Assembly: GCA_049322615.1 (NCBI GenBank)
Contig: JBMORX010000005.1
Span: forward strand, 395-64,394
Origin: Patescibacteria group bacterium
GTDB lineage: Bacteria; Patescibacteriota; Microgenomatia; CAYGWK01
Direction: 5' to 3'
Length of the DNA stretch: 64,000 nucleotides
The notes under the pieces were generated by a model, which was not told the DNA's origin, made no database searches, and was given only the letters and a program-made list of their open reading frames with translations. Positions 9,194 to 59,396 of the stretch are shown here, one piece after another (position 1 is the first letter of the stretch; every line of letters starts with the position of its first letter). The position numbers and the translations under genes were made by a program.

Positions 9194-9236
9194 AGAACTT
9201 GACAAATTTCCGTTTTTGTTATAGGATAGGCGAAAT

Positions 9237-9680: not shown

Positions 9681-9879
9681 TCCTCAAGCAAAGGATAGGT
9701 ATTTCCATTTAAGGGGTTGTATACCCCCCGAAAGGGTGTCTATTATAGATGAGAGGGCGACGGGGGCGACAGACTTGATAAAGGATTTTTTAATAAGGGA
9801 CTCTCTTGAACGGATTCGCACTCGTTGCTTACCAAAGGATCTAAAAGATGGGAGATTTGGGTTGAGACCCAGACAGTAG
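9667..9879 (+). CDS. hypothetical protein
   Basis: 70-aa ORF overlapping previous stop. Confidence 0.25.
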   Translation: MEKFDPQAKDRYFHLRGCIPPERVSIIDERATGATDLIKDFLIRDSLERIRTRCLPKDLKDGRFGLRPRQ

Positions 9880-9897
9880 AAAAGACTCTACTAGTAT

Positions 9898-17132: not shown

Positions 17133-18192
17133 AATCAAGTGCTCATCAGGTATTAAATCAGGTGCCCATCGTCTTGTTTTAATCGATGGCAATGCCATTT
17201 TGCACCGCGCCTATCATGCCCTTCCGCCCTTAACTATCCGTTCTGGAGAATTGGTTAATGCTGTTTACGGATTTACGACCATGCTTCTTAAGGTAATTTC
17301 CGATCTAAAGCCAAAATATTTGGCGGTGGCTTTTGATACCCCAAAACCTACTTTTAGGCAGATAGAATATGTTGGTTATCAAGCCCAAAGACCGGAGATG
17401 GAGGCAGAACTTTCTTCGCAAATTAGTCGAGTTTATGAGATTCTTAAGAGTATGGGAATTCCCATTTTTGAGAAAGAGGGATTTGAGGCAGATGATGTTA
17501 TTGGGACAATCGCTCGCCAAGCGAGCGAAGAGACTAAGATATTAAGAGATAAAGATATTAAGAGAAGAAAAAGAAAAGCACCTAGTATCTTAGTATCTAA
17601 ATATCCTAATATCGAAGTCATTATCGTTACTGGTGACCGGGATATGATGCAATTGGTGGGACCAAAAATTATGGTTTATGCCCCAATTAGAGGACTATCC
17701 GAAGCCCAGTTTTTTGACGAAGAAAAAGTAGAAGAAAAAATTGGAGTTAAACCTTGGCAGATTTCAGATTTTAAAGGGTTAACTGGCGATGCCTCGGATA
17801 ATTATCCAGGAGTGCCGGGAATTGGGCCAAAAACCGCGGTTTTGCTTTTAAAAAGATTTGGGACTTTGGAGAAACTTTATAAAAATCTTTCGGAGGTTGG
17901 AAGATATTTTAATCCAAGTGTCGTTGGCAAACTTTCTCAAGGAGAAGAACTGGCGAGAATTTCTAAAAAATTGGCAACGATAGTCACCGATGTTCCTTTA
18001 AAGGTTGATTTAGAAAAATGTAAGTTTGAATTTAGTGATGAAGAAAGGCAACAAACAATTAAAAAATTAGAAGAGTTAAGATTTAAAAGCCTGGTGGAGA
18101 GGTTAAAGAAGCCGGCAACACCCGCCTTCGCCAAGGCTACGGCGGGCAGGCAGAGGGCACAGAGGGGCGGGGGACAGTTAAAGCTGGTCTAG
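17122..18192 (+). CDS. 5'-3' exonuclease (Pol I N-terminal FEN-like domain)
   Basis: LVLIDGNAILHRAYHA..., GFEADDVIGT, H3TH region GIGPKTA; contains in-frame G-family insert (17531-17612) and C-family insert at C-terminus (18111-18170). Confidence 0.75.
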   Translation: MGGKIKCSSGIKSGAHRLVLIDGNAILHRAYHALPPLTIRSGELVNAVYGFTTMLLKVISDLKPKYLAVAFDTPKPTFRQIEYVGYQAQRPEMEAELSSQISRVYEILKSMGIPIFEKEGFEADDVIGTIARQASEETKILRDKDIKRRKRKAPSILVSKYPNIEVIIVTGDRDMMQLVGPKIMVYAPIRGLSEAQFFDEEKVEEKIGVKPWQISDFKGLTGDASDNYPGVPGIGPKTAVLLLKRFGTLEKLYKNLSEVGRYFNPSVVGKLSQGEELARISKKLATIVTDVPLKVDLEKCKFEFSDEERQQTIKKLEELRFKSLVERLKKPATPAFAKATAGRQRAQRGGGQLKLV

Positions 18193-25107: not shown

Positions 25108-25262
25108 ATTAAAAGGGGCAGTGCAATTCCTAATTTTCTTCTTCTTGTTATTTTCCGCAGAATTTGCGATAATTAAATAAGTAATTAGTAAATAGTAATT
25201 TGTAATTTGGACTAGACGTTTTTCTCCTAATTACTAATTACCAATTACGAATTACTAGATTA

Positions 25263-25409
25263 ATGTACGTTCCTGAATTTACAATCACTAACGAAATCTT
25301 GAAAAACATTGGCATTATTGAAGCCTGTCGGCCCAGCCAAATTTTACCTCTCGCCTTAGTAGATTTCTACTGCGGCTCGAGGAGCAATTTTAGGCGGGTT
25401 TGGCAGTAA
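25263..25409 (+). CDS. upstream ORF: N-terminal mimic of Fic (MYVPEFTITNEILKNIGIIEA) running through an E-family palindromic element; stops 4 nt before fic start
   Basis: See findings; first 21 codons encode near-identical peptide to fic N-terminus with mostly synonymous differences. Confidence 0.5.
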   Translation: MYVPEFTITNEILKNIGIIEACRPSQILPLALVDFYCGSRSNFRRVWQ

Positions 25410-25413
25410 AATC

Positions 25414-26547
25414 GTGTATCAACCAAAATTTACAATTACCAACGATATTCTTAAGAATATAGGCATCGTGGAAGCTGCCAAAGAAGTGATTGATAACGCT
25501 CCTTTGGTCCCGGCTTGGGAGAAGAAGTTTCGCGAAGAGGCGATGGTGCGGACGGTTCACTACGGCACTCATCTTGAGGGAAATGAGCTTTCTTTTTCTG
25601 AAGCAGAAAAAGTTTTGGAAGGACAAAAAATTGTTGCCAAAGACAGAGATATTCAAGAAGTTATAAATTATCGTAAGGTGATTAAGTATCTAGATGAATT
25701 GGTTCCGAATGAAGAACCTGCAACACCCGCCTCCGCCAAGGCTACGGCGGGCAGGCAGAAAGCACAGAAGGAAGCAGAGAGCATAGAGAAACCATATACT
25801 GAAGCGATGCTTAAAAAAATCCACTTTTTAACTTGTTATCGGATTATTCCCAAAGACCAGGCAGGTAAATTCCGCCAAACCCAGGTGGTTTTAAGAAATT
25901 CTCAAACTGGAGAAGTTGCTTTCAAACCACCACCTTCCGCTCAAGTTCCTGCTCTTGTTTCCGATTTCCTAGGCTGGTTGAATTCGGAAAGTGGAAAAAG
26001 CATTCATCCAGTGATGCGGGCGGGGATTACTCATTACGCTTTGGCGGCAATTCATCCTTTTGTTGAGGGAAATGGTCGGACCGCCCGGGCTTTTGCCACC
26101 TTGATTTTGTTCTCCGAAGGCTACGACATTAAAAAATTTTTCTCTTTAGAGGAATATTTTGACAAAGATGCTCCTTCTTATTATTCTGCCCTGATGCAAG
26201 TTTCAAACCAGAGCGAAAATCTTTCTCAAAGAGACCTAACGCCCTGGATTGAATATTTCGCCAAAGCCCTTGCCTTAGAGTTGACAAGAATAAAAGAGAG
26301 AGTGAGAAAACTTTCTTTAGACTTAAAAATTAAGGGAAGGCTGGGGCGGCAGATTGCTTTATCAGAACGACAAATGAAACTAGTTGAATACCTGGAGGAA
26401 TATAAAGAAATTACCGTTCCCCAGGCTCGCCAGATTCTTCAAATGGTTTCCGATGATACCATCCTTCGCGACTTGAAAGACCTGGTTAAAAAGAAGATAA
26501 TCAAAAAAGAGGGGAAAACTAAGGCAGCAAAATACGTTATGAAATAG
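25414..26547 (+). CDS. Fic family protein (AMPylation-type)
   Basis: HPFVEGNGRTARAF Fic motif; C-terminal winged helix; in-frame C-family insert at 25727-25790. Confidence 0.8.
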   Translation: MYQPKFTITNDILKNIGIVEAAKEVIDNAPLVPAWEKKFREEAMVRTVHYGTHLEGNELSFSEAEKVLEGQKIVAKDRDIQEVINYRKVIKYLDELVPNEEPATPASAKATAGRQKAQKEAESIEKPYTEAMLKKIHFLTCYRIIPKDQAGKFRQTQVVLRNSQTGEVAFKPPPSAQVPALVSDFLGWLNSESGKSIHPVMRAGITHYALAAIHPFVEGNGRTARAFATLILFSEGYDIKKFFSLEEYFDKDAPSYYSALMQVSNQSENLSQRDLTPWIEYFAKALALELTRIKERVRKLSLDLKIKGRLGRQIALSERQMKLVEYLEEYKEITVPQARQILQMVSDDTILRDLKDLVKKKIIKKEGKTKAAKYVMK

Positions 26548-31801: not shown

Positions 31802-32736
31802 TAATTGCCCTTTTTTCCTTTTTTATAAGTCTTGCGGTTGTTATTTTTGGAGCAAAGCTTCTTCTGGCGGCTTCAATCTCTTTATCCCGCTTTTTACGTC
31901 TTCCGGAAATGGTTGTTGGGGCAACCCTGGTTTCCTTAATTACGACGATGCCGGAAAATCTTGTTTCTATCTTTGCCTCTGTTAGTGCTCACCGCGGGCT
32001 GGCTTTGGGTGATGTTGTTGGGAGCGGCTTAGTCAATTTAGGGCTTATTTTTGGGATAGTTCTTTTGGCTGGTCATGGCCAAGGCGAGAAAGAAGGAAGA
32101 GGGAGGAGAAGAAGTCTTATTCTTTTTTGTTTAGTCCTTTTGATTTCACTTTGGCTTTTAATTTTTGGCAAAATTGGTTCTTATGGGGGAGCTGCCCTAA
32201 TTTTGGCTGCCTTTGTTTTTCTTGGTTATACCTTTTGGTACACTTTAAAGGAATCAGGCGAAAGTTTAAAAATTATTGAAATTAAACTTGAAACCCACCC
32301 AAAAGTAATTTTTAAGTTTTTCTTAGGAGCTCTGCTTTTAATCTTGGGGGCAAGATTTTTGGTTTCTTCAGGCGTTAGTCTTGCCCAAATTTTAGGCTTG
32401 CCAGAGATTTTAATTGGAATTACCTTGGTGGCGGTTGGAACTTCGCTTCCCGAACTTGCGACTGCCTTAACTGCTTTATTTTCTGGTCACGAAAAACTTT
32501 CTTTGGGCAACCTAACCGGAGCAACAGTTCTGACTTTTACTTTAGCCCTAGGGTTGGTGGCGGTAATTTCTGGGGTTGAAGCGGGAGAAGAGAAGTTAAA
32601 AATTGATTTCTTGGCGCTTTTGCTATTTAGCGGTTTAACTTTGGTTTTTGCTCATTTTCCAAAACTTCCCCAAAGAATCCTGGGCGGAATTCTGGTTATT
32701 AGTTATTTTTGCTATCTTGGTTATTTATTTTTGTAA
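31798..32736 (+). CDS. Ca2+/Na+ antiporter (CaCA family, YrbG-like)
   Basis: Two alpha-repeat regions GDVVGSGLVNL / GTSLPELATAL. Confidence 0.8.
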   Translation: MIIALFSFFISLAVVIFGAKLLLAASISLSRFLRLPEMVVGATLVSLITTMPENLVSIFASVSAHRGLALGDVVGSGLVNLGLIFGIVLLAGHGQGEKEGRGRRRSLILFCLVLLISLWLLIFGKIGSYGGAALILAAFVFLGYTFWYTLKESGESLKIIEIKLETHPKVIFKFFLGALLLILGARFLVSSGVSLAQILGLPEILIGITLVAVGTSLPELATALTALFSGHEKLSLGNLTGATVLTFTLALGLVAVISGVEAGEEKLKIDFLALLLFSGLTLVFAHFPKLPQRILGGILVISYFCYLGYLFL

Positions 32737-32876
32737 TGAAGATAATCGCTGATCTACATTTTCATAGTAAGTACTCACGCGCCCCGTCTAATCTTAGCAC
32801 TCGGCTTTTCAGTACTATTCGTACACGCCTCGTGCTGCGATTTTTACGGGGCAGCTTTTTAATGGTGTTAAAATAG
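32736..32876 (+). CDS. upstream ORF: N-terminal mimic of the PHP protein (MKIIADLHFHSKYSRA) running through E-family element; stops 4 nt before main ATG
   Basis: Start overlaps CaCA stop (TAATG); element-encoded tail SNLSTRLFSTIRTRLVLRFL resembles the pth uORF tail. Confidence 0.5.
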   Translation: MKIIADLHFHSKYSRAPSNLSTRLFSTIRTRLVLRFLRGSFLMVLK

Positions 32877-32880
32877 TCCT

Positions 32881-34299
32881 ATGCAGATCACTGCTGACTT
32901 GCACTTCCATAGTAAGTACTCACGCGCGGTTTCCCAACAAATGGTTTTGCCGGAAATCGCCAAATGGGCCAACTTTAAGGGAATTGATTTAGTCACCACC
33001 GCTGATTTCACTCACCCCTTATGGCTTAGGGAGATTAAGGCAAATCTTGAGGAGAAAAGGGAGGGAATTTATAGAGTTAAAGGTCAAGAAAAACCCTTAT
33101 TTTTATTGACAACGGAAATCTCAAGCATTTATACCCAAAATGGAAAACTTAGGCGAATTCACAATCTGGTCTTTGCCCCAAATTTAGAAGAAGCGGAAAA
33201 AATTGAGACAGAGTTGGCCAGGAGAGGGAATGTCATGTCTGATGGTCGGCCGATTTTTGGGCTTTCCGCTCGGGATATTGCGGATTTGATTTTAAACCTT
33301 TCCCCGGAAGCGTTGATTGTCCCAGCGCATTGCTGGACTCCCCATTTCGCTTTGTATGGTTCAGAATCTGGATTTGATTCTATCGAAGAATGTTTCGGTG
33401 ACATGGCGAAAAATATTTATGCAGTGGAGACCGGTTTGTCAAGTAGCCCTGAAATGAACTGGAGAGTAGGGGAACTAGATAGACGGTCAATTATTTCCTG
33501 CTCCGATGCCCATTCGGGGGCAAAATTGGGAAGAGAAGCAACAGTGTTTGAGATAGAAGATATCAAGAAATTAAGATATGAAGATATTAGGGAAGCGATA
33601 AGAAGTGGGGGTGGGAAGTGGGAAATGGGTCGGGAAGTGGGGGTGGGAAGTGAGGAGAAAAGAGGAAAACCCCACATCTCATACACAATTGAATTCTATC
33701 CCGAGGAGGGGAAATACCATTATACTGGGCATCGAAATTGTAATGTTCGCCAATCGCCCGAAGAAACCCGCCGGCTGGGCGAGGTGTGCCCTGTATGTGG
33801 TAAACATTTGACCGTTGGAGTGATGCATCGCGTAGAAGAGCTGGCAACGCGCGAAATTTCCGCCTTCGCTAAAGCTTCGGCGGACAAGAAAAATGAAAAA
33901 CCTGCCTCGCCGACAGGCGGGTTAAAAATTAAAAATGACGAAAAAGAGGTGAAGTGGATTGGATACGAGAATAGACCTCCTTATGTGATGTTAGTCCCGC
34001 TTTTGGAGATTTTAGCCGAGTCACTAAATACCATTATTAGTAGTCAAAAGGTAATTTCCGAGTACAGAAAGTTAACAGAGAATTTTAGGGGAGAATTTGG
34101 GGTTTTACTAAACACTGATATTTCTGAAATTGCCAAAATTTCCGGTCTAAGGATAGCCGAGGGAATAAAAAAAGTCCGCTCTGGTGATATTGTCGTTGAC
34201 CCGGGTTACGACGGCGTCTTTGGCACCGTCAAAATCTGGCCCGAGGGAAAAGATGTTGCCAAAGAGGAAGAAGAAAAAGAACAACTAGCATTATTCTAA
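32881..34299 (+). CDS. PHP-domain phosphoesterase with C-terminal zinc ribbon, endonuclease Q-like
   Basis: ADLHFHSKYSRA PHP metal site; CPVCGKHLTVGVMHRVEEL; in-frame gtgggaag repeat (KWEMGREVGVGSEE). Confidence 0.55.
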   Translation: MQITADLHFHSKYSRAVSQQMVLPEIAKWANFKGIDLVTTADFTHPLWLREIKANLEEKREGIYRVKGQEKPLFLLTTEISSIYTQNGKLRRIHNLVFAPNLEEAEKIETELARRGNVMSDGRPIFGLSARDIADLILNLSPEALIVPAHCWTPHFALYGSESGFDSIEECFGDMAKNIYAVETGLSSSPEMNWRVGELDRRSIISCSDAHSGAKLGREATVFEIEDIKKLRYEDIREAIRSGGGKWEMGREVGVGSEEKRGKPHISYTIEFYPEEGKYHYTGHRNCNVRQSPEETRRLGEVCPVCGKHLTVGVMHRVEELATREISAFAKASADKKNEKPASPTGGLKIKNDEKEVKWIGYENRPPYVMLVPLLEILAESLNTIISSQKVISEYRKLTENFRGEFGVLLNTDISEIAKISGLRIAEGIKKVRSGDIVVDPGYDGVFGTVKIWPEGKDVAKEEEEKEQLALF

Positions 34300-35589: not shown

Positions 35590-35745
35590 TTTTTGAATTT
35601 ACACCCCTTGACCCCGTATGGTCTTACTTCTCACCTTTTCACCCCGATTTAATCGGGGACGGTTCGTGCTGCAATTTTAACGGGGCTTGACAATGGTTAA
35701 GTATTTATGAAAGGATATATTTAGTAATTGAATGTGAGACGAAAT

Positions 35746-35860
35746 CACTGAAAGCACAGAAATTTCAGTGCTTTCTGTTAAATTCAGTGCTCTTTCGGTG
35801 ATTAGGGGGTGCATTCGGAAACAGAACTTCCTACTCCTGAAGGCACAGAGAAAGGGGGTG
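35746..35860 (+). promoter_or_regulatory. A-family leader element copy 2 (ends gaaagggggtg 10 nt before ATG 35871)
   Basis: See 468-580. Confidence 0.5.
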
Positions 35861-35870
35861 AAAAATAAAA

Positions 35871-36197
35871 ATGGCAGAAGGAAAAACCGGAACTGGGCTT
35901 CCGACAAACACGGCCGCCGCTTTGTCCTATGTCTTAGGCTGGCTAACCGGCATCGTTTTTCTCTTAATTGAGAAAGACCCATTTGTTCGCTTCCACGCCA
36001 TGCAGTCAATCATTACTTTCGGGCTTTTGACAGTTTTGTCCTTTGTTCCGATAGTTGGCTGGATGCTGTCTCCATTTTTAATGATAATTGGGTTTATTCT
36101 CTGGTTAGTTTTAATCTTCAAGGCTTATCAGGGAGAAAAGTTTAAGGTGCCGGTGATTGGCGATTTTGCCGAAAAGCAGGTAGAAAAAGTAAAATAA
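35871..36197 (+). CDS. small multi-pass membrane protein (DUF4870-like)
   Basis: Three predicted TM helices, conserved FHAMQS block. Confidence 0.5.
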   Translation: MAEGKTGTGLPTNTAAALSYVLGWLTGIVFLLIEKDPFVRFHAMQSIITFGLLTVLSFVPIVGWMLSPFLMIIGFILWLVLIFKAYQGEKFKVPVIGDFAEKQVEKVK

Positions 36198-37628: not shown

Positions 37629-37643
37629 TGGTATAATGAAAGA

Positions 37644-37754
37644 GTGAAATTAATCGTCGGACTGGGTCCACCTAATCTTACTTCAAGTCTTTTCAGTTCT
37701 ATTCGAACACGACTTGAAGAGCGATTTTTGGCGGACCGAGTATTATTTATATGA
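37644..37754 (+). CDS. upstream ORF (GTG start): N-terminal mimic of Pth (VKLIVGLGPP) running through E-family element; TGA overlaps pth ATG (ATGA)
   Basis: 36 codons, no internal stop; TATAAT at 37632-37637 just upstream; element-encoded tail NLTSSLFSSIRTRLEERFL. Confidence 0.5.
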   Translation: MKLIVGLGPPNLTSSLFSSIRTRLEERFLADRVLFI

Positions 37755-38389
37755 AATTAATAGTGGGACTCGGTAATCCTGGGAAAAAATACGAAAAAAG
37801 CCGGCATAATATTGGTTTTATGGTCGTGGATGAACTCGCGCAGAAGTGGGAAGTGGGAAGGGTGAAGTGGGAAGAAGACAAGAAATCGAATACATTAATC
37901 ATCAATCATCAGCCATTGGCCATCCTGGTTAAGCCACAAACAATGATGAACGCTTCGGGTTTTGCCGTCAAATCCCTAATTACTAATTACAAATTACCAA
38001 TTACTAATCTCTGGGTAATCCATGATGATTTGGATTTACCTTTAGGGAAAATAAAAATTGTCAAAGGTCGGGGTTCAGCCGGACATTATGGGGTTGGGTC
38101 AATAATTCGGGAACTTGGGACAGCTGATTTTGTTAGGTTTAGGCTTGGAATAGGTCGTCCGGCGGGGAAGCCCCCCTTCGCCGAGGCTTCGGGGGGTAAA
38201 TGGGAAGTGGGAGGGGGGAGGTTAGTGGATGAAAATGTGATGCATCGGGAGGTTGAAAGATATGTTTTGGAAGGATTTGGAGGCAAGGAGGCAGTTGAGG
38301 CAAAAAAAACCATCAAAAAAACGGTCGAAGCAATCGAATTGGCCTTGGAAAAGGGAGTAGAGGAGGCAATGAATCGTTATAATAAATAA
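37751..38389 (+). CDS. pth: peptidyl-tRNA hydrolase
   Basis: MKLIVGLGNPGKKYEKSRHNIGF...; lengthened by in-frame T-family (ITNYKLPITN) and gtgggaag-type inserts. Confidence 0.85.
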   Translation: MKLIVGLGNPGKKYEKSRHNIGFMVVDELAQKWEVGRVKWEEDKKSNTLIINHQPLAILVKPQTMMNASGFAVKSLITNYKLPITNLWVIHDDLDLPLGKIKIVKGRGSAGHYGVGSIIRELGTADFVRFRLGIGRPAGKPPFAEASGGKWEVGGGRLVDENVMHREVERYVLEGFGGKEAVEAKKTIKKTVEAIELALEKGVEEAMNRYNK

Positions 38390-41694: not shown

Positions 41695-42462
41695 TTGATC
41701 ATGTCTAAAGCCTATATTGGCACTTCTGGCTTTTCTTACCCTCACTGGGGCGATGGGATTTTTTATCCCAAAGGTTTACCTCAAAGAAAATGGTTTGAAT
41801 ATTATTGCCAGCATTTCTCAACGGTTGAGCTTAATGTTTCTTTTTATCGCCTGCCCAAAAAAGAGGCTTTTTCTTCCTGGCGAAAGCGGGCGGGGAAGGA
41901 TTTTGTTTTTTCGATTAAGGGTAGCCGATTTGTTACTCATGTTAAAAAATTAAAAGATTGTGAGGAGGCGGTCAAAACTTTTTTTGACGCCGCTAGCCCC
42001 TTAAGAGGTTCAACCTCACAGGAGATTGAACCTCCCCAGGAAAAGAACGTTGTTCTTTGGCAGTTACCTCCAGGATTGGCCTTCGACGAGCTCAGGCTAA
42101 AAAAGTTTTTGGCTATTCTTCCTCGGACGTGGCGGCATGCTTTTGAGTTCAGAAACGAGACCTGGCTTTGCTCCGAGGTATTTTCTTTATTACGGCACAG
42201 TAATAAAGTCGCGGTGTTCCAGGACTATCCTGACTGGCCGATGACGCGCGAAGCGACGGCGGATTTTGTCTATATTAGATTCCATGGCAACCGCGTGCTT
42301 TACTCTTCTGAATACACAGAAGAAGAACTAGAAACTTGGGCTTTGGATATTAAGAAATGGTTAAAACAAGGAAAAGATGTGTACGCTTATTTTAATAATG
42401 ATGCTCTAGGTTATGCGATTGAGAATGCGAAAACATTAAAGAAATTAGTAATTGGTAATTAG
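41695..42462 (+). CDS. DUF72 (UPF0759) family protein
   Basis: N-terminal YIGTSGFSYPHW...FYP signature. Confidence 0.7.
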   Translation: MIMSKAYIGTSGFSYPHWGDGIFYPKGLPQRKWFEYYCQHFSTVELNVSFYRLPKKEAFSSWRKRAGKDFVFSIKGSRFVTHVKKLKDCEEAVKTFFDAASPLRGSTSQEIEPPQEKNVVLWQLPPGLAFDELRLKKFLAILPRTWRHAFEFRNETWLCSEVFSLLRHSNKVAVFQDYPDWPMTREATADFVYIRFHGNRVLYSSEYTEEELETWALDIKKWLKQGKDVYAYFNNDALGYAIENAKTLKKLVIGN

Positions 42463-43035: not shown

Positions 43036-43155
43036 TCACCCCTTGACCCCAGTAGAACGCTTACCTGCTCTCGTGGTCTACGTCCACGCATCGCAGGAGC
43101 GCGTCTACGGGGTCGGCGGGGCGTTTAATCCGCCCAGGGCGGATTATTTCGCCCC

Positions 43156-43517: not shown

Positions 43518-44989
43518 AAATGATTAAGGAAAAAACTTTCAAAGTCGAAGGAATGCATTGTGCTTCTTGCGAGCTGGTGATTGAGAAAAAATTACTAACT
43601 CTTCCAGGGGTCCAGTCAGTCGAAGCCTCAGTCGGTAAAAGTCAGGTTGTGGTTGAATATGAAGGGAAACCGCCACCAAACGAAGACCTCAATAAAATGT
43701 TCCTTCAGGAAAAGTATACCTTTTTTGACCAAGAAAAAGAGGTAAACCTTGAAACTGATAATTCGTTGACAGTGACGGTTATTGTGGTTTTGCTGGTGAT
43801 TATGGTTTTTATCATTGTCCAAGGTTTTGGTTTGCCAGGGCTTATTAACGTTAACAAGAATTCATCTTTGCTGGCATTTTTCGTTTTAGGGCTAGCTGCC
43901 GGAGTCTCAAGCTGCGCTGCCTTGGTGGGAGGTTTGGTGCTTTCGCTGTCCAAACAGTGGTTTGAGCTTTATTCTAATAGGAATTCGACCATCGAGAAAC
44001 TCCAGCCGCATTTTTTATTTAATACCGGCAGGATTCTCTCCTATGCTCTTTTCGGCGCGGCTCTTGGTTTAGTTGGCAATCGCCTAGAGATTTCCTTTGT
44101 CTTTACTTCCTTTTTAGTTATTGCCGTCTCTGTCCTTATGTTTCTCCTGGGGCTTGAGATGTTGGGGATTAGATACTTTCAGAAATTCCAAATCACCATG
44201 CCCAAAGCGATTACTAGATATGTGGCTGATGGAAGAAATTTTAAAGGCAGGTATATGCCTTTTCTGGTGGGAGCAATGACTTTTTTCTTGCCTTGCGGGT
44301 TTACCCTTACCGCTTATGGATTTGCTCTTCTTTCCGGAAGCATGGCGCAAGGAGCCTTAATTATGTTGGCTTTCGTTTTGGGGACCCTGTCAGGTCTTTT
44401 AGCGATCGGTCTATCGGGCATCAAATTGGCGGAAAGTCATCGTTTCTCAACCTTCTTTCCTAAGGCTGCCGGCGCCCTGGTTTTGTTTTTTGCTCTTTAT
44501 AATCTTAACAATCAGTTTAATGTTTTGGGGATTTCCAGTTTAAGTGATTTTAAGCTTAAGACCGCTGGTTTAACTCAAATAAATGGCAATGACTTGGCTC
44601 CGATAGTCGCAGGAAAACAGATCATCAAAATGGACGCCTCAGGCTACGGTTACCAACCAAACTATTTTAAAGTTCAGACTGGGATACCTATTCGTTGGGA
44701 GATAACGGATAAAGGAACGAGCGGTTGCACCAACGCGGTTATCTCCCGAGGGTTATTTGACGGACAAATTAGTCTGACGCCTGGCCAGGTGAGTGTTAAA
44801 GAATTCGTTGCCCCAAAACCGGGTCGGTATAAATTCAGTTGTTGGATGGGGATGATTTCAGGAACTATCGAAGTCGTGGATAAAAACGGCTCGGTAAAAT
44901 CTTCAGGGAATGTCGAAGTCCCCTCCGGCGCAAGGGGGTGCGGCTGTGGTGGGAGCGGGGGCTCCAGTAGCTGCCAGACGCTGAGATGA
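43514..44989 (+). CDS. heavy-metal-associated (HMA) domain membrane protein with DsbD/CcdA-like TM core and C-terminal cupredoxin-like domain
   Basis: N-terminal MHCASCE HMA motif; TM Cys residues; Cys-rich C-terminal tail. Confidence 0.45.
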
Positions 44990-47365
44990 AAAAAGAAACC
45001 TTCTTACTTAAAGGAATGCATTGTGTTTCCTGCGCGGTGACAATTGAGAATGCTTTAAAAAAAGTACCAGGCGTTTTCTCGGCCGTGGTTAATTTTGCTG
45101 CAGAGAAGGCGACAGTAGAATTCAGCGATCAAGCTATTGAGCAATTAAGATATCAAGAATTATTAGAGAAGATTAAAAAGGCGGTAAAAAACGCAGGCTA
45201 TGAATTGATAACGGATGAGAAGGATGATCACAGAAGGCACAGAAAAAAAGATGAGGGCACAGAAAAAGAAATGGAACATCACGACCACGCGGCAATGATG
45301 AGGGAAGAAGAATTAATAGACTTGAAAAGAAAAATTGCTGTTGGCGCGGTGATCTCCGCTTTAATTCTAGCTATTACCCATCGTTGGTTACTTTTCTTAT
45401 CCACACTTTCAGACCAAACAACCTTTTTCCTTTTGTTTTTCTTAGCTACTCCGGTCCAAGTCTGGTTAGGAAAAAGTTTTTATCAAGGGACGTTTCGGGG
45501 TTTAAAAAATCTTCGGGCTAACATGGATACCCTCGTTGCTCTAGGAACAACCATCGCCTATCTTTATAGCGTTGGTCTAACTTTTATTCCTTCTTATTTT
45601 GCTATGGCAGGGGTCAAGCTTCATATTTATTATGATACCGCCGTTTTTCTTTTGACCATCATTACTTTTGGCCAGTTTTTAGAAAAAAGAGCCCGAGGCC
45701 AAGCAGGAGAAGCGATAAAGAAGTTGATGGGGTTGGCACCCAAAACCGCTCGCGTCCTTCGACAAGCTCAGGATAAATTAGTAGAGATAGATATTCCTAT
45801 CGATCAAGTTCTGGTGGGTGATATTTTAATCGTTCGTCCGGGAGAGAGAATTCCGGTTGATGGAATTGTCGTAGAGGGTGCTTCGGCGGTGGATGAATCA
45901 ATGGTTACGGGTGAAAGTATGCCAGTTGAGAAGAAAAAGGATGACCAGGTAATTGGGGCGACGATTAATAAATCTGGTTCTTTTAAGTTCAAAGCCACAA
46001 AAGTTGGTAAAGAGACGGTTTTAGCCCAAATTATCAAGCTTGTTGAGGAGGCTCAGGGTTCAAAAGCGCCAATCCAACGACTAGCGGATACAGTCTCTGC
46101 TTATTTTGTCCCCGCAGTGATTTTAATAGCGGCTTTAACCTTTTTGATTTGGTTTTTTGTCGGACCTACTCCTGCTTTAACCTTTGCCATTATTAATGCC
46201 ATTGCTGTTTTGATTATTGCTTGCCCTTGTGCCTTGGGTTTGGCGACGCCAACGGCGATTATGGTGGGGACGGGTAAAGGAGCAGAAAAAGGGATTTTGA
46301 TTAAAGATGCCACCAGCCTTGAGATTGCTCATAAGATAAAAACGATTGTTTTGGATAAAACAGGGACGTTGACCAAGGGGGAACCTGGGGTAACGGACAT
46401 AATAATATCAAATATCAAAGATCAAATATCAAAAATACAAATTAAAAATCAAAAAGATTTACTAAGAATTGCCGCCTCGGCCGAGTTGCGGAGTGAGCAT
46501 CCTTTGGGGCAGGCGGTGGTTAAGAAAGCCAGGGAGCAAGGACTGAAATTGGTTGAACCAACAAACTTCCAGGCAATTACCGGGAAAGGGGTAAAGGCGA
46601 AATTAGTAATTAGGAATTTTAAAGGGAAATCGTGTTTTGATGAAAGAATTTAAGGTGGAGATACCAAAAGCAGTGGAAGAAAGAATGAAGAGATTAGAAA
46701 ATGAAGGCAAAACAGTTATGCTCTTAGCCGTAACCCAATTACCAATTACTAATTACCAATTACTAGGCATTATTGCCGTCGCTGATACTCTTAAGGGAAA
46801 TTCGAAGGAAGCAGTCCAAGCCTTGCAAAAGATGGGGCTTGAGGTTTGGATGATAACTGGGGACAATCCCCGAACGGCTCGGGCGATCGGAAAAATGGTA
46901 GGAATTGATAAAGACCACATTATGGCGGAAGTGGCCCCTCAAGAAAAGGAGAGGAAAGTGAGAGAGCTTAAAACCCAAGGTGCCGTATCTGGTGAACCTC
47001 TAAGGTTGGTGAGTATGGTGGGTGATGGGATAAATGACGCCCCGGCTTTGGCGGCTTCAGATGTTGGGATTGCCATGGGAGCGGGGACGGATGTGGCGAT
47101 GGAGTCAGCCGGGATAACATTGATGAAATCAGATTTGCTGGATTTGGTGGCGGCGATTAGACTTTCCAAAGCAACCCTTGCGATTATCAAGCAAAATCTT
47201 TTCTGGGCTTTCTTTTATAACACGGTTTTAATTCCGGTTGCGGCTGGGGTTCTTTATCCATTTTTTGGGATTCTCTTAAATCCTATTTTTGCTTCCGGAG
47301 CAATGGCGTTTTCTTCAGTTTCCGTGGTTTTAAATTCCTTGAGACTGAGAAGAATAAGAATTTGA
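44986..47365 (+). pseudogene. copA: copper-translocating P-type ATPase CopA, split into two ORFs by a +1 frameshift in a T4 run near 46624-46637
   Basis: HMA MHCVSCA, CPC, DKTGTLT in 44986-46653; GDGINDAPAL and last TMs in 46637-47365 (TTG-started ORF); deleting one T in gtgttttgatg restores a continuous frame. Confidence 0.7.
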
Positions 47366-47408
47366 TATTAAGATATTAAGATATTAAGATATTAAGATAT
47401 TAAGAGAA
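47363..47408. repeat. G-family tandem (gatattaag x5)
   Basis: atattaagatattaagatattaagatattaagatattaagag. Confidence 0.6.
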
Positions 47409-47423
47409 GGGAGGTGAACTATT

Positions 47424-53986: not shown

Positions 53987-54668
53987 AGAGTAATTAGTAA
54001 ATAGTAATTAGTAATTGGGTCCTTGACTTTTTTTATTTTTTAGCGTAAATTAACTCCACCTCTGTCCAAGCCTGCTCCAGTTTCTATCCTAATTACAAAT
54101 TACGAATTACTAATATCTAAAATATCTAAAATCTCCTGCCCAGCCCCATAGGGCCTTACCGTTCGCCTTCAGGTTCTATTCGAACACGGCTCACGGAGCG
54201 GCCTGACGGGGCAAGGGAGGTTTTTATGTTATATTGGGGCCTTTTTACTTTTGGCTACTGCCTCGGGGCGATTTTCGCCACTTTTATTTTCTCTGGACGC
54301 GCTGATTAACGCTGAAAATCAGGCTAAAAGAGGAGATAAATTACTCAAAGAAAACAACCGGTTTAGTCTTTTAACTAATAGCGTCGTCAAAAATAGGCTG
54401 ATTAACGCTGAATTTTTGAGGCTATAGTTTTGATAACCAGGCTATTCTACCAAACTATTTGTCTGATAACAAAATACTATATTTAATAAAACTTTGACAA
54501 TAATATAGACCTATAAAAAAACTTCCCCATCATTTTAGCCTCGGAAATAGTGATCTTCCGTGATTGTTGGTTTTTAGTTTTGTGCTTGACGGTCTAAAAC
54601 CCCTAAAATCATCTTAACTTATAGGGACTTGACAAGAGTACCCATGAAAGGTAACAATTAAAGGGTAA

Positions 54669-57600
54669 ATGACTGCCCAAGAAAAATTAAAAATTCTTCA
54701 AAAAGTTTTAAAAGAAGGCGCTTCGGTTTCTTCTGTCTGTCGAAAATTTAAAATTTCCCGAAAAACCTTTTATGCTTGGAAGAAAAGATATTTGGCAGTC
54801 GGACCGAGGGGAAAGATCACTTGCCTTGAAAAACGCCATTTAAGAGGCTTACAGCACCCCCGAGGCTTAAGACTTCGCTTTAAAAAAGACATTTTGAGAC
54901 TGGTAACCCTTCATCCGGAGTGGGGAAGCCATACCCTAAATAAAAAATTAAAAATAAAAAATAAAATATTGGGTAACCATGGTGTTTATTCCTTATTAAA
55001 AGAGCTGGGTCTTGAGACATATCTAAAAAGAAAAGAGTTTGCCGGCGATTATCGCAGCCCATTAAGGCTTTTGCCCGAAGCGAGAAAGCGGATGGTTGAA
55101 AGGGTGATTCTGGCTCAAGAAAAAGTAGGAGAGGTAGCTGGCGAATTCGTGGTCAGCCGGAAGACACTTTGGAAATGGGCAAAAAGATATAAAGAAGGAC
55201 AAGAAATGCAAGATCAAAATCCGACCGGCTCAAGCCATCCTCGGGGAACACCGGAGTGGCTGGAGAAGAAAATCCTGGAGGCTATCGTCAGAAATCCAGA
55301 GTATTCAACTCACAAGTTGGCGCAAATTATTCCAAAAATCGGTAATCATGGGATACAGAATGTATTATTGCGAAATGGTTTGAATACTTTTGATAGGAGA
55401 CTGGTTTATGCCCGAACCCATGCTCCTGTTTCTCTGGTTCAACCAATTACCGGTTGGCTCAACCGTCTCAAATCTGTCTGGCAAACTTTTGTTCCCACCA
55501 TTGCTCCAGCCCCCCCGCCAAAAATCTTTCAGATATTTAGGCGGGCAAGCCCTCCCTTCTTGCTTTCTTTCCTTACAAGTTCAATTCTTTCTTTTCTTTT
55601 TCTCCTCTGGCTTTCAATGATTTCTTCCTATCCCGCTTTCTTACGTCCTGGTCTTTTCTTTGCCTCGATTTCTTTATTAGTTGGTTCTTTTTTCTTCTTA
55701 TACTCAATGAAATATTACTTTACTTTGGCGCTTGTTTTGTCGTTCTCGACGCAAACAAGCGAGGTGGGGCCCGCCTCCGTTGACACTTCGGCGAGGCAAG
55801 GCTGGTTGGCGAGGATATTTGGAATCGGTAATGGTGCCTTAAGAGGTCTGACCTCTTTAAAGTCTTCGACCGAGGTCAGACCTCCCCTAGGAGGTGGTTT
55901 GCAACCAAACCTGGAGCATATTAAATTAGAAAGATATCCTTTTATCTCTGTCCACCTACCTTTTTATAATGAGAAGAAAGTGGCGGAGAGAATTTTGTCT
56001 GCCTGTACCTCTTTTGATTATCCCCATTACGAGGTGATTGTTTGCGATGATTCGACCGATGAGACAGTCGAAATCATTAACGAATGGAAAGACCATCCCC
56101 GCGTTAAGATTCTTCACCGACCGACAAGAGAAGGATTTAAAGGTGGGGCCCTTCGGGAAGCCTTAAAACACCTGGATCCGAAAACGGAGTTTGTCATCAT
56201 CTTTGATGCGGATTTTATTCCCTATCCTGATACCTTAGAAATGTTTGTCAAATACTTTAAGGCGACAGGAGGATGGAATGAGCAACAGAGCTATCAAGCT
56301 ACCAGGCTATCAAGTATGCCTTACGATACCTTTTCCAAAGTAGAGATTAGCACTTCGACAAGCTCAGTGCTAGAAAAACAGGTTGAAGAACTAAGGAAAA
56401 AGAATAACATTGCCTGTGTGGCGGGTTATCAATGGCATGTTTTAAATAAATCAGAAAACTGGATAACCAGGGGAGTGAGAACTGAATACGCGGGAAGCTA
56501 TGTGATTGAAAGACCAGGGCAAGAGATTCTTGGAGCCTTAAAGATTATCCATGGGTCTGTTTACTGTATCAGAGCCGATGTTTTGAAGCATTTTGGTTGG
56601 GGAACAAGTATTACTGAAGATTTTGAGTTAACCTTAAGAATCTACGAGAAAGGGTTTAAAGTAGTTTACACTCCCTATGTCCAGGCACCTTCAGAGTGTG
56701 TCTCGACCATTAAAAGATTAATTAGACAGAGAATGAGGTGGGCAGAGGGACACTCCTTTAATGTCCGAAAGATGTTTTTAAGACTTTTGTTTGGGAAGTG
56801 GGAGACGGTGAAGACAGAAGACAGAGGACGGACGACGGATACAGAGGACAGAGAACAGAAAACAGAGCATCAGCCTTCAGTCATCGGTTTTCAAAATCCG
56901 TCTTCCGCTTTCAGTCTTCCGTCTTCCAGGCGGTGGGTTCCTTCAAAACTCACCTTCGCCGAGAAACTGGAATTTCTCTACCTCAGCCCTTATTATCTTC
57001 AAGCTTTTTTCTTTTTAATCGGGACCTTCTCTTGGCTAATCAGTGAGACTGTTTTTCCTGCCAGACTCCCTTTCTGGACTTCTCTCTGGGGCTGGTCTTT
57101 GGTCTTAACCAACTTCTTTGCCCTACCTTTAGTCAATGCCGTGGGATTATTTTTAGAGGAGAGTGAGGAAAGAGATTACTTAGGGATTTTATCATTTGTG
57201 GCTTTGTCTTATTTGTTAGTTCCCTTCCAAGCCTATGCTGCAGTTAAAGGCTTTTTAGAGTCCCAAGAAGGCCCCTGGTTTAGAACCCCAAAAACAGGCA
57301 AGATTACCGATATTTTTACAAGAGGCAGATTCTATCGCTGGATTACCGGTATTTTACCAGGTCGGGCAAAGCCCTCCCTAGCGCCGATTGCCGCTGATAT
57401 CAGCGCTGATCAGCGCGGATTTTTCAATCAGCCATTATCAGCGTATGTCGCCTTAGCGACAGCCAATAATCACTTTAATCGCTTTCATATCAAGCCTAAG
57501 AAAATGAGATGGTTGGCAAAAACTTTTCTTGCTGTTCTCTTAATCCTAAGCCTTAATCTTTCCTGGCTGTCTTTCAAAGTTCCTTTGGCTCACGCCTCGC

Positions 57601-59396
57601 CCGGAACCCAGATTAAAACAATTGAGATGCCGATTTATCAATATGCGGCTAACGCCGATGATACGGATATCGCTGCTTCAAATGGAATCGATAATACTGC
57701 CTATACCAATAACGGTCCCCAATTTTCCTTAAACATTCCCGAGACAATGGTTGACTGTCGAACTGATTTAACTGGCACCAATCCTTGTTATGCCTATGTT
57801 GAGTGGCGAACGATTCTTAGCGTGGCAAATGTGACTTCTGGGGAAATGAAGTTTCGTATAGGTACAAGTGCTTTTAAAACTTTATCCTTAACTACCTTAA
57901 ATACCAACTCTGGCGAAAGCCAGTCTCTTATTATTCGTATGGATGTCACCAGTGAAGTGGCTCAAGGAAATAATACTTATAACTTTAATGCTAATGTGGA
58001 TGTGGCTAGAAATACCGATTCAGCCAAATTAATCGTGACTTATGAATATGATGATTCTGCCACAACCCAGGTAAAAACGGTCAGGTATGCCTTGCCGACT
58101 AAAGAAAGCCAATCAGCCGCAAACACAAATGATACATTAACTAGCACCCTAAACCCTAATCTCCAAGAAGCTAACATTTCCATCCAAAAAGCCTGGATTG
58201 AATTAACAGGTCAGGTTTCGGCGGGGACCGCGGACACGGGGACTAGAGCCATTATACAAGATAGCAATGTGTATCCAGTGGGTAGTGGTGCAACGAACTT
58301 AACGATGATGGATGGAGACAATAAAACCACTATGGATTTTGTGGCCATGTATGAACCTTCTAATGTAGTAGCTTCCGGAGCCGGTCCTATGGAATTGAAT
58401 TATAATGCAGCGAATACAATTGCTATGCGAAACGCTGGTCAGGTCATGAATCTAAAAGGTGGAGAACTTTTGATTACCTATAATTACAGCTATTACAATA
58501 CTTCCAGTACCACCCACCGCAACGCTGTCCGCTATTATGTGGGGCAGTTAGACGGAGCCCTACCCACATCTTATACTCAAATAGGGGCGCCGGTGGTTTA
58601 TCTACCGGAAAGCTCGCTGGCAAACTATAATGTTTATCTTAAGGTAGTGGGGACGAATGTTGACAATACTGGTACTAGGTATAGAGTGACCATTACTGGT
58701 GGTTCGGCAGTAGAATATCCCTCTGCCACAACTTATTATGCGGCGGCGATTTCCGAGCAGGCAGGTAGAGAAGTTATTTTTATTGATATTTCAAGCAATT
58801 TTTCCAGCAATTGGAGTAGCGGCGATACAGTGACGGTTGAGGCAATAGCAGAGGCGGCGTCTGATCATTATGCCATTGGAGCGGAACTTGTTATTTCCTA
58901 TAATTTTACTATCCCGGTGGGTAGTGGCACTTTTACCAATATTAAGACGGTTAATTGGTTTATTGGACAACAAACAGCCAAAGCAGCAGATAATTGGTCG
59001 CCCACTTTTAACACCTATATCCCCGAAACCTCAACCACTGTACGATCTTCGGGAGGGGAGGGAAATTACGTTATCTCTGATACAGGAAACTGGTACAAAG
59101 GTCTTCAGGTAGCCAGTGTTGGCAATGATTCAAGTTATACCACTACAGGCGAGAATGTTACGCTTTCAAACTTTTCTAGTACAGGCTTAACCGGTTCCTC
59201 GCAAACTAGCGTCTCTGCGATTATAAGGGTTTCCGATGGTAGTTCAGCATGGAAGGATTCCCTGAAAGGGGGTATCACTTTTACCACCTATGAGGTTTCT
59301 GCGCCCCAGGCGCCGGAAAAAGCGTTAATGCTTTTATTTGTTGCACCATTTTTACCTAAAATAGTAGAATGGTGGAGAAGGAAATATTTGCAATGA
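54669..59396 (+). CDS. multidomain membrane protein: tandem transposase-type HTH (N-term) + processive GT2 glycosyltransferase (cellulose/chitin-synthase-like) + long Thr/Ser/Asn-rich beta-type extracellular region + C-terminal sorting-signal-like tail
   Basis: HTH repeats (KFKISRKTFYAWKKRY; EFVVSRKTLWKWAKRY); GT2 motifs DDSTD, FDAD, QRMRW; 1575 codons without stop; C-terminus APEKALMLLFVAPFLPKIVEWWRRKYLQ. Confidence 0.65.
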   Translation: MTAQEKLKILQKVLKEGASVSSVCRKFKISRKTFYAWKKRYLAVGPRGKITCLEKRHLRGLQHPRGLRLRFKKDILRLVTLHPEWGSHTLNKKLKIKNKILGNHGVYSLLKELGLETYLKRKEFAGDYRSPLRLLPEARKRMVERVILAQEKVGEVAGEFVVSRKTLWKWAKRYKEGQEMQDQNPTGSSHPRGTPEWLEKKILEAIVRNPEYSTHKLAQIIPKIGNHGIQNVLLRNGLNTFDRRLVYARTHAPVSLVQPITGWLNRLKSVWQTFVPTIAPAPPPKIFQIFRRASPPFLLSFLTSSILSFLFLLWLSMISSYPAFLRPGLFFASISLLVGSFFFLYSMKYYFTLALVLSFSTQTSEVGPASVDTSARQGWLARIFGIGNGALRGLTSLKSSTEVRPPLGGGLQPNLEHIKLERYPFISVHLPFYNEKKVAERILSACTSFDYPHYEVIVCDDSTDETVEIINEWKDHPRVKILHRPTREGFKGGALREALKHLDPKTEFVIIFDADFIPYPDTLEMFVKYFKATGGWNEQQSYQATRLSSMPYDTFSKVEISTSTSSVLEKQVEELRKKNNIACVAGYQWHVLNKSENWITRGVRTEYAGSYVIERPGQEILGALKIIHGSVYCIRADVLKHFGWGTSITEDFELTLRIYEKGFKVVYTPYVQAPSECVSTIKRLIRQRMRWAEGHSFNVRKMFLRLLFGKWETVKTEDRGRTTDTEDREQKTEHQPSVIGFQNPSSAFSLPSSRRWVPSKLTFAEKLEFLYLSPYYLQAFFFLIGTFSWLISETVFPARLPFWTSLWGWSLVLTNFFALPLVNAVGLFLEESEERDYLGILSFVALSYLLVPFQAYAAVKGFLESQEGPWFRTPKTGKITDIFTRGRFYRWITGILPGRAKPSLAPIAADISADQRGFFNQPLSAYVALATANNHFNRFHIKPKKMRWLAKTFLAVLLILSLNLSWLSFKVPLAHASPGTQIKTIEMPIYQYAANADDTDIAASNGIDNTAYTNNGPQFSLNIPETMVDCRTDLTGTNPCYAYVEWRTILSVANVTSGEMKFRIGTSAFKTLSLTTLNTNSGESQSLIIRMDVTSEVAQGNNTYNFNANVDVARNTDSAKLIVTYEYDDSATTQVKTVRYALPTKESQSAANTNDTLTSTLNPNLQEANISIQKAWIELTGQVSAGTADTGTRAIIQDSNVYPVGSGATNLTMMDGDNKTTMDFVAMYEPSNVVASGAGPMELNYNAANTIAMRNAGQVMNLKGGELLITYNYSYYNTSSTTHRNAVRYYVGQLDGALPTSYTQIGAPVVYLPESSLANYNVYLKVVGTNVDNTGTRYRVTITGGSAVEYPSATTYYAAAISEQAGREVIFIDISSNFSSNWSSGDTVTVEAIAEAASDHYAIGAELVISYNFTIPVGSGTFTNIKTVNWFIGQQTAKAADNWSPTFNTYIPETSTTVRSSGGEGNYVISDTGNWYKGLQVASVGNDSSYTTTGENVTLSNFSSTGLTGSSQTSVSAIIRVSDGSSAWKDSLKGGITFTTYEVSAPQAPEKALMLLFVAPFLPKIVEWWRRKYLQ

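Follow-up and report, generated by a model that had tools for sequence, protein, structure and literature searches.

Small palindromic repeat families such as REP/BIME, ERIC, Correia/NEMIS, RUP, the Rickettsia RPEs and the cyanobacterial MITEs are shorter than 150 nucleotides (nt), multi-copy, hairpin-forming and non-autonomous. They are mostly intergenic or transcribed, sometimes intragenic, and leave either no target duplication or one of a fixed 2-10 bp; RPEs are translated in frame in the host protein. Much larger inserts can replace the end of a gene. Prophage e14 of Escherichia coli supplies the functional 3' end of icd, with the native icdC fragment lying beyond the insert (PMC13626634). 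Most differences between the two ends are synonymous or conservative, and the ends recombine when the insert is lost (PMC13626634). SXT, in turn, resides in the 5' extremity of prfC (PMC5812530). Here we analyse a 64,000-nt stretch of contig JBMORX010000005.1 (positions 395 to 64,394; assembly GCA_049322615.1) from a Patescibacteria group bacterium, hereafter the window. In it, a hairpin of about 75 nt, which we call E, stands between two diverged copies of the 5' end of each of three genes: pth, fic and a gene of the endonuclease Q family (endoQ). About 25 loci in many genomes have E between diverged direct repeats of a gene end, and E may be part of a miniature insertion that replaces such ends. 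Comparison sequences are referred to by their L numbers.

At the pth locus, the displaced or orphan 5' end consists of GTG and seven further codons (VKLIVGLG, 37644-37667; the features of all three loci are on the + strand). It has four nt differences from positions 37751-37774 and no amino acid change. Over ten residues the orphan reads VKLIVGLGPP and the gene MKLIVGLGNP, the conserved Asn of GNP having been lost from the orphan (GPP) at the junction. E follows at 37665-37737 (covariance-model match 37665-37739, 85.5 bits) and folds at -32 kcal/mol (z-score -6.0), with an outer stem of GGTCCACC/GGCGGACC and the apical motif TTTTCAGTTCTATTCGAACACG. A spacer without a Shine-Dalgarno motif (GAGTATTATTTAT, 37738-37750) leads to the true ATG of pth, which encodes peptidyl-tRNA hydrolase (37751-38389; Pfam PF01195, Pept_tRNA_hydro, 2.8e-56) and whose nt 1-24 are the replacement copy of the repeat. 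The orphan start opens an upstream open reading frame (uORF) of 36 codons through E (37644-37754), ending with TGA 37752-37754 within an ATGA on the true ATG 37751. Just 5' of the orphan is a -10-like box, GTATAAT, which weakly resembles GTATTAT in the spacer.

The other two loci are built alike. The endoQ orphan (MKIIADLHFHSKYSRA, 32736-32782) begins with ATG 32736, which overlaps the stop codon of a Na/Ca-exchanger gene (TAATG). It is followed by E (CCCCGT...ACGGGG, 32782-32851; covariance-model match 32781-32855, 83.6 bits, z-score -4.9) and by a tail and spacer (CAGCTTTTTAATGGTGTTAAAATAGTCCT, 32852-32880), of which the tail CAGCTTTT is common to the endoQ units of L167, L173 and L110. The 46-codon uORF (32736-32876) runs through E to TAG 32874-32876, 4 nt before the true ATG 32881 of the endonuclease-Q-family (PHP) gene (32881-34299). 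Nucleotides 1-47 of that gene are the replacement copy, with nine differences from the orphan in nt 1-27 and none in the next 20. The fic orphan (MYVPEFTITNEILKNIGIIEA, 25263-25324) differs from nt 1-62 of fic, the replacement copy there, by 19 nt and four conservative amino acids. Its E copy (25331-25402; 45.5 bits, z-score -2.9) belongs to a divergent subfamily in which the apical hairpin differs. The uORF of 48 codons extends from ATG 25263 through E to TAA 25407-25409 (25263-25409), again 4 nt before the true start, GTG 25414, of fic (25414-26547; Pfam Fic and HTH_DeoR). An earlier reading made from the sequence alone (the sequence-only reading) had noticed this shared upstream architecture. 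The architecture and the peptides it quoted are present as described, and its gene identities agree with Pfam for pth and Fic and with homologs for endonuclease Q. It had tied the arrangement to the N-termini of three genes, which proved too narrow, as C-termini, many genes and other genomes are also involved.

The wider set of loci was collected in several ways. When the 110-140-nt flanks of 128 E copies were compared, about 14 had significant direct repeats, with the left copy ending at the left base of E. Further loci came from a translated-repeat scan and from a metagenome scan for the CCCCG...ACGGGGC subfamily, and gene identities at the repeat loci were verified by Pfam. Besides pth, endoQ and fic in the window, the N-terminal cases are endoQ in L110, L167 and L173, fic in L153, an NTP-transferase gene in L113, MreB in L100, L143, L147 and L127, a radical-SAM/UPF0004 enzyme in L076, and L012. 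The C-terminal cases concern the proteins S7 (L004), S9 (L015, L144), GyrB (L062, L017) and L7/L12 (L077, L061, L164), and a sortase (L137). In these the gene is opposite in strand to E, and the orphan, complete with a stop codon, is found on the far side of the functional stop, the spacer and E.

The polarity of the arrangement was the same at 17 of the 17 loci where it could be evaluated: the copy belonging to the long ORF lies on the 3' side of E, and the copy that abuts the 5' base of E lies outside the long ORF. This holds for co-oriented (N-terminal) and opposed (C-terminal) genes alike. Because the orientation of the gene relative to E is opposite in these two groups, a symmetric target duplication would not produce this pattern. 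A short spacer separates E from the intact gene on its 3' side, and the point at which replacement stops always falls just past a strongly conserved peptide (HSKYSRA, GIDLG, IPAAG, GCQMN, VGLG, NKAFAHFRW or ATVELK). No repeat period is divisible by three, so the uORF and the gene remain separate ORFs and no N-terminally extended fusion protein results. The same loci recur in independent assemblies (L100/L133/L157 and L113/L136, compared by eye from the sequence listings), and L173 and L174 have the same protein with the same E match.

The distance from orphan to functional copy is clustered. Over about 20 loci it was 145-151 nt in nine (a group that includes endoQ, NTP-transferase, MreB, radical-SAM, sortase and fic), 124-130 nt in four and 104-118 nt in seven, with none at 131-144 nt. 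Repeat and spacer lengths vary inversely, so something seems to fix the total distance. Beside E the two copies share identical blocks of 1-27 nt, the sequence of which differs per gene; the run-length statistic is biased by alignment trimming. An E-proximal identical "core" was considered and rejected: a permutation test looked significant, but the matches in which local alignments end inflate it, and long runs occur distally as well.

Divergence between the two copies has the form expected of coding sequence at both gene ends. Of the 86 nt differences across 11 repeat pairs (402 nt), 61 fall at third codon positions; 13 amino acid differences result, all conservative. Random placement of 86 changes would be expected to give 56.5 +/- 3.5 amino acid changes, and none of 20,000 simulations came as low as 13, which bears out the mostly synonymous differences seen in the sequence-only reading. 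The two endoQ copies of L173 have 13 differences and an unchanged peptide, including a Ser AGT/TCC switch. Orphans of C-termini had 18 nt differences and one amino acid difference. All six differences in the NKAFAHFRW orphan of S7 are synonymous, including that of the stop codon (TAA/TAG), and the AKSATLDI orphan of GyrB, likewise ending in a stop, has a Ser TCA/AGC switch; other synonymous switches in the pairs include Leu CTG/TTA and Arg CGA/AGA.

On the codon-position test, this pattern rules out a plain target-site duplication followed by neutral decay, in agreement with the earlier argument that such a duplication could not give a synonymous bias. It likewise excludes selection on the uORF peptide as a general cause, because C-terminal orphans, which lie beyond the functional stop and E, diverge alike. 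In L015, E contains stop codons in the frame of the orphan, so translation is not what preserves that orphan. Two further explanations were rejected. Ongoing gene conversion between the copies predicts few and mostly non-synonymous orphan differences, whereas the divergence seen was about 21% and nearly all synonymous. Divergence selected to avoid deletion between the repeats predicts changes mainly in the orphan, whereas the orphan is native-like where polarity can be inferred.

Comparison with relatives indicates which copy is native. The closest relatives, L003, L171 and L172 (79-82% nt identity over the endoQ body), have no E at endoQ, and L003 is also without E at pth and fic. In L003, pth is coupled directly to the preceding gene via ATGA, and the endoQ start of L172 overlaps the preceding stop (ATGA). 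As the ATG of the endoQ orphan overlaps the exchanger stop, the upstream copy in the window occupies the position of the gene start in relatives. Over nt 1-27 of endoQ, the orphan differs from the native gene of L003 at 4/27 positions and the functional copy at 10/27 (P about 0.02, our own estimate). The former value fits the 18% divergence of the gene body between the window and L003. We read the window endoQ orphan as the native end, because the orphan and not the functional copy matches L003 at body-level divergence; the distal part of the functional end would be either foreign or unusually changed. Orphans are native-like also, more weakly, for DUF72 of L003 and gyrB of L062.

The endoQ unit is patchily distributed. 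An E unit interrupts endoQ at the identical codon in the more distant L167, L173 and L110, and L174 also carries the unit, while L171, L172 and L003 are without it. The arrangement that the sequence-only reading had pointed to as worth seeking in related genomes is thus present in L167, L173/L174 and L110 but absent from the closest ones. Third positions of endoQ in L167 and L173 are near saturation relative to the window. Between the window and L167, the E copies at endoQ are identical at 64/70 positions, and the gene bodies are 77% identical with a third-position identity of 40%. Seemingly truncated endoQ homologs with MILPE or MVISE starts (L001, L002) were considered as further insertions and dismissed as gene-calling artefacts, the full N-terminus being present.

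Two loci are layered. L164 has three rplL (L7/L12) ends, each reading ATVELK and a stop, in which 13/13 pairwise differences are synonymous; they are separated by two clearly different E variants. In L167, an older E survives as a degenerate tail, followed by a spacer that has a Shine-Dalgarno motif; after these come the orphan, an intact E and then the functional end. Such layering is better explained by successive insertions of different units at one gene end than by a single ancient tandem duplication. That replacement ends form a shared lineage was also considered: in mreB, the functional copy of L133 is nearest to the orphan of L143 (8 differences against 12-17 for other pairs, counted by hand), which hinted at swapped types. 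The endoQ matrix lends the idea no support, as functional copies do not cluster there.

With slightly better than even confidence, we propose that the E unit is a miniature gene-end-replacing insertion, the orphan being the native end and the functional end being imported or recoded. It would enter a few codons inside the gene and comprise three parts: the hairpin E of about 70 nt, a short tail or spacer, and a replacement for the gene end. The native 5' end would thereby be severed from the gene body and persist as a "uORF" that abuts the left base of the hairpin without a gap, and the replacement end on the right would be in register with the gene body. Units of the same type would replace the 3' ends of genes that point toward the right side of E. 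The two copies would differ mostly at synonymous sites since each serves, or served until recently, as a real coding end of one of two diverged alleles, one native and one brought in. The replacement end may have been imported from another lineage, with short nucleotide identity at the conserved motifs guiding the joining through homology or microhomology, and a mobilising enzyme would be involved. At N-terminal loci, ribosomes would initiate at the native start, melt the hairpin by reading through it, terminate at the true start and reinitiate. The homing-type element with a start mimic, the last alternative listed in the sequence-only reading and the closest to these data, survives in spirit, in that the data fit a polar unit of E, tail or spacer and replacement end. 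A more far-reaching version is possible but doubtful: E units would be non-autonomous homing cassettes of about 105-150 nt in the Candidate Phyla Radiation (CPR). The hairpin would then travel between lineages with a recoded gene end that serves as homology arm and repair, serially replacing ends, stacking orphans and rewiring initiation via the relic uORF.

Several observations weigh against replacement by an imported end. No donor sequence that matches a replacement end was found, and orphan and functional copies share lineage-specific traits (a short MISKRIGIDLG in L127, SYDLG in L147), so donors would be fairly close relatives, or else the duplication arose in situ. A scan of about 36 window ORFs identified no mobilising enzyme and gave no Y1/HUH match; the matches included a single tyrosine recombinase (9898-10818) and, at 54669, an N-terminus of HTH_Tnp_1 type. 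Neither free nor circular forms of the unit were seen. Polymorphism between empty and filled sites was not found at gene ends; the only polymorphism, in helix P3 of RNase P (L070), has no flanking repeat. Repeats of 25-60 nt at about 78% identity would be poor substrates for homologous recombination. The assignments of the native copy draw on short stretches of 27-45 nt. Replacement ends of endoQ are dissimilar across genomes (window against L167, 10/45; window against L173, 15/45) despite a 91% identical E, which is awkward if E and its patch always travel together. Nor is E strictly required, as orphan ends without it occur at the recombinase gene of the window and at DUF72 of L003. Finally, the clustered spacing is a regularity that only duplication in situ would naturally account for.

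Such an in-situ duplication of a 25-75-nt target on insertion, with divergence introduced later by recombination or gene conversion with diverged alleles in the population, strikes us as rather unlikely. Candidate routes are long staggered cuts, replication slippage at the hairpin and Campbell-type integration of a circle from the same locus. A fixed duplication length could underlie the spacing clusters (145-151 nt at nine loci in at least five genes, 104-118 nt at seven). The repeats moreover reach into non-coding flanks at lower identity in L100, pth, L137 and L050, and the lineage-specific traits are common to both copies. Mosaics of an identical block beside E (20 nt in the window endoQ, 27 nt in L147) and a diverged distal part (P about 0.007 and 0.003, our own estimates) also favour this course of events. 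Yet among about 150 E copies there is no identical, that is young, repeat pair, and the 17/17 polarity in both gene orientations is not predicted. A foreign refresh of the orphan would predict a non-native orphan, whereas the outgroup cases show a native-like one; and the rplL ends of L164, parted by two E variants, are not the outcome of a recent tandem duplication.

The remaining alternatives have far lower probability. A selected leader, in which purifying selection acts on the N-terminal peptide (as a nascent-peptide or autoregulatory signal) and the hairpin is a structure-dependent switch, was the direction taken by the sequence-only reading, and we now hold it very improbable. Orphans at N-terminal loci do have start codons, a frame open through E at every locus and a stop at the true start, and the mreB orphans of L133 and L143, which have a similar spacer tail, differ by eight synonymous and three non-synonymous codons by our count. 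However, C-terminal orphans show the identical pattern, one of them with in-frame stops in E; the peptide is different for each gene, hence offering no common signal; the pth orphan is without the conserved Asn; and the arrangement is missing from the closest relatives. At the three window loci, neither a terminator-like nor an alternative-pairing feature was detected, alternative pairings not having been examined exhaustively. Less probable still is homing driven by a trans-acting, sequence-directed nuclease, RNA-guided or other, that cuts the native end, the recoded end being immune as in synthetic cleave-and-rescue drives. This would explain synonymous-only recoding, conserved essential targets, repeated layers and the conservation of the hairpin loops across a phylum-level group. 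Against it, no nuclease was identified, an adjacent guide would also match the "rescued" copy because the block next to E is identical in both copies, and repeat-free E copies occur in 5' untranslated regions (UTRs), beside tRNAs and, in both orientations, in RNase P helix P3. An assembly artefact, with two strain variants of a gene start joined in tandem, almost certainly does not account for the pattern. L070 is such a case, a scaffold gapped with Ns that holds two alleles of the RNase P 5' region; but the same architecture occurs at the same sites across studies and assemblers (L100/L133/L157, L113/L136, L173/L174), an intact ORF and fixed polarity are always kept, and the window loci are without gaps.

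If gene-end replacement is the origin, the uORF would be its by-product, and its form at N-terminal loci is regular. At 12/12 such loci tabulated, the orphan keeps a start codon, the frame is open through E (one of three frames) and the uORF stops between -14 and +10 nt from the true start; L167, read by hand, is likewise. In E copies at large, about 40% of frames stay open over that distance, giving a P of about 1e-3 for 7-9 independent loci. Stop and start overlap as ATGA at pth and in L100, and most true starts have no Shine-Dalgarno-like motif by eye. In the window, short ORFs with their own start (36, 46 and 48 codons) thus lie 5' of the gene on the same strand, as leader ORFs do, and the stop lies at or near the downstream start, as in termination-reinitiation. 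Each of the three window loci has a single stable hairpin, and no terminator-like site was found at pth, endoQ or fic. In L173, the gene caller annotated a 51-residue ORF exactly at the uORF position. We consider translational coupling a plausible secondary use of the uORF; ribosome read-through and reinitiation would explain why it is kept open. Such read-through would be a consequence of the insertion, probably retained by selection, and not what makes the peptide look conserved. An outward promoter in the spacer was also considered, on account of -10-like boxes seen by eye (TGTTAAAAT, TATTAT, TAAAAT), and set aside when a consensus scan gave no convincing sigma-70 site at the three spacers.

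E itself is a widespread family, with covarying stems and more than 130 copies in Microgenomates metagenome-assembled genomes (MAGs). Scanning one genome per species for the core TTCAN{0,1}GTNCTATTCGNACACG gave at least 118 loci. Among the core matches listed, nearly all are from Microgenomates MAGs (Levy-, Gottesman-, Roizman-, Curtiss-, Shapiro-, Davies-, Collier- and Blackburnbacteria), several records bearing apparently wrong taxon labels. A covariance model was built from 90 aligned copies; the core motif is invariant by ascertainment in this alignment, and we make no claim for its conservation. The consensus has an outer stem of CCCGCC/GGCGGG or CCCCG/CGGGG, conserved internal loops CTTAC and AGCG, a variable helix and then an apical GTAC-TATTC-GTAC. 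Compensatory changes occur at 11 of the 15 predicted base pairs, and the window hairpins fold far better than shuffled sequence (z-scores from -2.9 to -6), which upholds the conserved fold suspected from the window alone. No Rfam 15 family was found at E, either with gathering thresholds (which gave only tRNAs in the window; L013, L070 and L087 were also searched) or with permissive thresholds at the element.

In the window, the model finds five clear E copies, all on the + strand, as are nearly all genes there. Of the copies previously listed, these five stand, and the one at 43046-43117 is borderline (10 bits, expect value about 1). Two have no gene-end repeat. The copy at 54143-54216 (+ strand, 71 bits) is followed directly by GGGAGG and an ATG, which is an ordinary intergenic or 5'-UTR placement. 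A divergent intergenic copy lies at 35611-35689 (+ strand, 31 bits), with no flanking repeat detected. An ORF on the - strand (35677-36009) that runs into the latter was examined as a C-terminal case and looks like junk.

Most E copies occupy ordinary non-coding positions. Some stand immediately 5' of a start codon and its Shine-Dalgarno motif, frequently separated from them by a further hairpin. In about one quarter of the copies a second conserved hairpin, AAGAAAYNCTAA...TTAGNRTTTCT, follows 30-80 nt 3' of E and precedes the Shine-Dalgarno motif and gene start (for example in L037, L039, L074, L078, L095 and L117). The genes that follow are diverse; judged by their N-termini, they appear to include rpsU, rplL and groEL, and some copies instead face a tRNA on the opposite strand. 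Together, E and the second hairpin look like a composite 5'-UTR module. E copies are often paired or clustered 125-225 nt apart, sometimes in opposed orientation (L002 3793-3994, L032 with five in 8 kb, L086 3302-3547, L082 and L025), and in L028 and L033 they are interrupted by another small hairpin or another E.

Other copies lie beside tRNA genes or beside the GGAAAGUCC motif of RNase P RNA, and we read the placement beside GGAAAGUCC as probable RNase P helix P3. Rfam RNase P models scored below threshold on these loci of L013, L070 and L087. E is in the sense orientation in L013 (about 6700-6830) and L070 (1-290), and in the opposite orientation in L087 (about 5330-5440). The L070 scaffold, with its N gap, holds two alleles, in which P3 is either a short hairpin (CCCCGC-ATT-GCGGGG) or a full E, with flanks identical at 59/60 positions.

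Orphan ends without E were seen at two genes. In the window, an orphan of the last 24 codons of the tyrosine-recombinase gene lies at 8556-8629 on the - strand, with the functional end at 9899-9972. The two have the same peptide by hand translation and eight nt differences, all synonymous and all in the distal 24 nt. The 1.27 kb between them holds HicB-like and HicA-like ORFs and one more ORF. The region (8410-10818) starts with tRNA-Ile (8410-8485) and an apparent 3' fragment of another tRNA (about 8518-8555), followed by the recombinase orphan; it resembles a remodelled integrative island that shows the orphan-end pattern without E. The second gene is that for DUF72 in L003 (11957-12165; compare window 42383-42462), the C-terminus of which is duplicated with no E hairpin between the copies. 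The functional end reads ...YFNNDALGYAISNALTLKKLLG and a stop, and the downstream orphan DVYAYF, a 38-nt insert, YFNNDALGYAISNAQRLKKLVE and a stop. There are 17 differences, 13 of them at third positions, and the orphan is closer to the native DUF72 end of the window.

The window has further repeats and unusual genes. It is rich in 7-8-nt tandem repeats (AATTACN, AAGATATT) and other small hairpin repeats, for example at 4672-4875, 25180-25265, 37975-38014 and 47339-47416, and also at 18112-18166, 25717-25771 and 33850-33904. Several of these repeats lie in frame inside genes, such as those encoding ITNYKLPITN and KWEVG... in pth, and a GC-rich hairpin encoding ...AKATAG... or ...AKASAD... lies inside fic and endoQ. 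An FtsH gene at 13497-16703 contains an intein with a LAGLIDADG homing-endonuclease domain. A copper-type P-type ATPase is apparently split into overlapping ORFs (44986-46653 and 46637-47365). About 450 nt 3' of the E copy at 54143 begins a 1575-codon ORF (54669-59396), in which an HTH_Tnp_1 start is fused to glycosyltransferase domains.

Among known systems, the small palindromic repeats are like E in size, copy number, hairpin and non-autonomy, and E shares with MITE- and REP-like elements a short, multi-copy, dispersed form with a conserved hairpin. Their fixed short target duplications, or lack of any, differ from the repeats at E, which are 17-62 nt or longer, 10-30% diverged and polar. 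E is not translated in frame within the host protein as Rickettsia-type RPEs are. To our knowledge, no small palindromic family has been described with a 17-60-nt, synonymously diverged second gene-end copy of fixed polarity, and a limited full-text literature search found no described CPR palindromic element or MITE of this kind. Integron attC and CTX-phage-type sites are imperfect hairpins with conserved unpaired bases that recombine as a folded single strand; E is a conserved hairpin with the conserved internal loops CTTAC and AGCG. The 90-copy alignment had no attC R/L consensus (RYYYAAC...GTTRRRY), and the window has no integron integrase context. As in operon coupling through ATGA or TAATG, the uORF stops overlap the start or lie within 14 nt of it, but the upstream ORF at E loci is a relic with hairpin-encoded codons and not a gene, and the coupling is putative.

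If the import model is true, the loci would be a direct signature of frequent short-patch DNA exchange between diverged CPR lineages, and E would be a natural insert that brings a rescue copy with it. Gene callers annotate relic 5' ends as small genes, as the 51-residue ORF of L173 illustrates, and their synonymous conservation can be mistaken for selection on the peptide. A relic uORF that ends at the true start would also be a simple, testable case of hairpin melting and termination-reinitiation.

The closest likeness remains with the large inserts. With e14 or phage 21 in icd, the layout matches that of the C-terminal E loci: there are two copies of the gene end, of which the replacement continues the gene and the displaced native one is found past the insert, and most of their differences are synonymous or conservative. 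The prophage e14, however, spans 15 kb, encodes an integrase and has a defined att core, whereas the insert at E loci is a non-coding hairpin and spacer of 60-110 nt, without an ORF of its own or an integrase, and it occurs at many genes, across which no common att-like core sequence was seen. Elements of the SXT/R391 type in prfC would be the N-terminal counterpart of pth, endoQ and fic. According to Hochhut and Waldor (1999), SXT reportedly gives prfC a new 5' coding end and expression signals while function is kept. SXT is a conjugative element of about 100 kb that encodes an integrase and targets one gene, whereas the very small, non-autonomous E units are found at many genes and leave behind a uORF ending at the true start. 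Replacement of gene ends by an insert is therefore known in itself, but in Rfam and a limited full-text search we found no described hairpin family of about 100 nt that does so across a phylum-level group, at the 5' as well as the 3' ends of many housekeeping genes. E is a widespread structured repeat family of a major uncultivated bacterial group, and its loci indicate that so small an element, of about 100 nt, can be associated with gene-end replacement, a behaviour otherwise known from large prophages and conjugative elements only.

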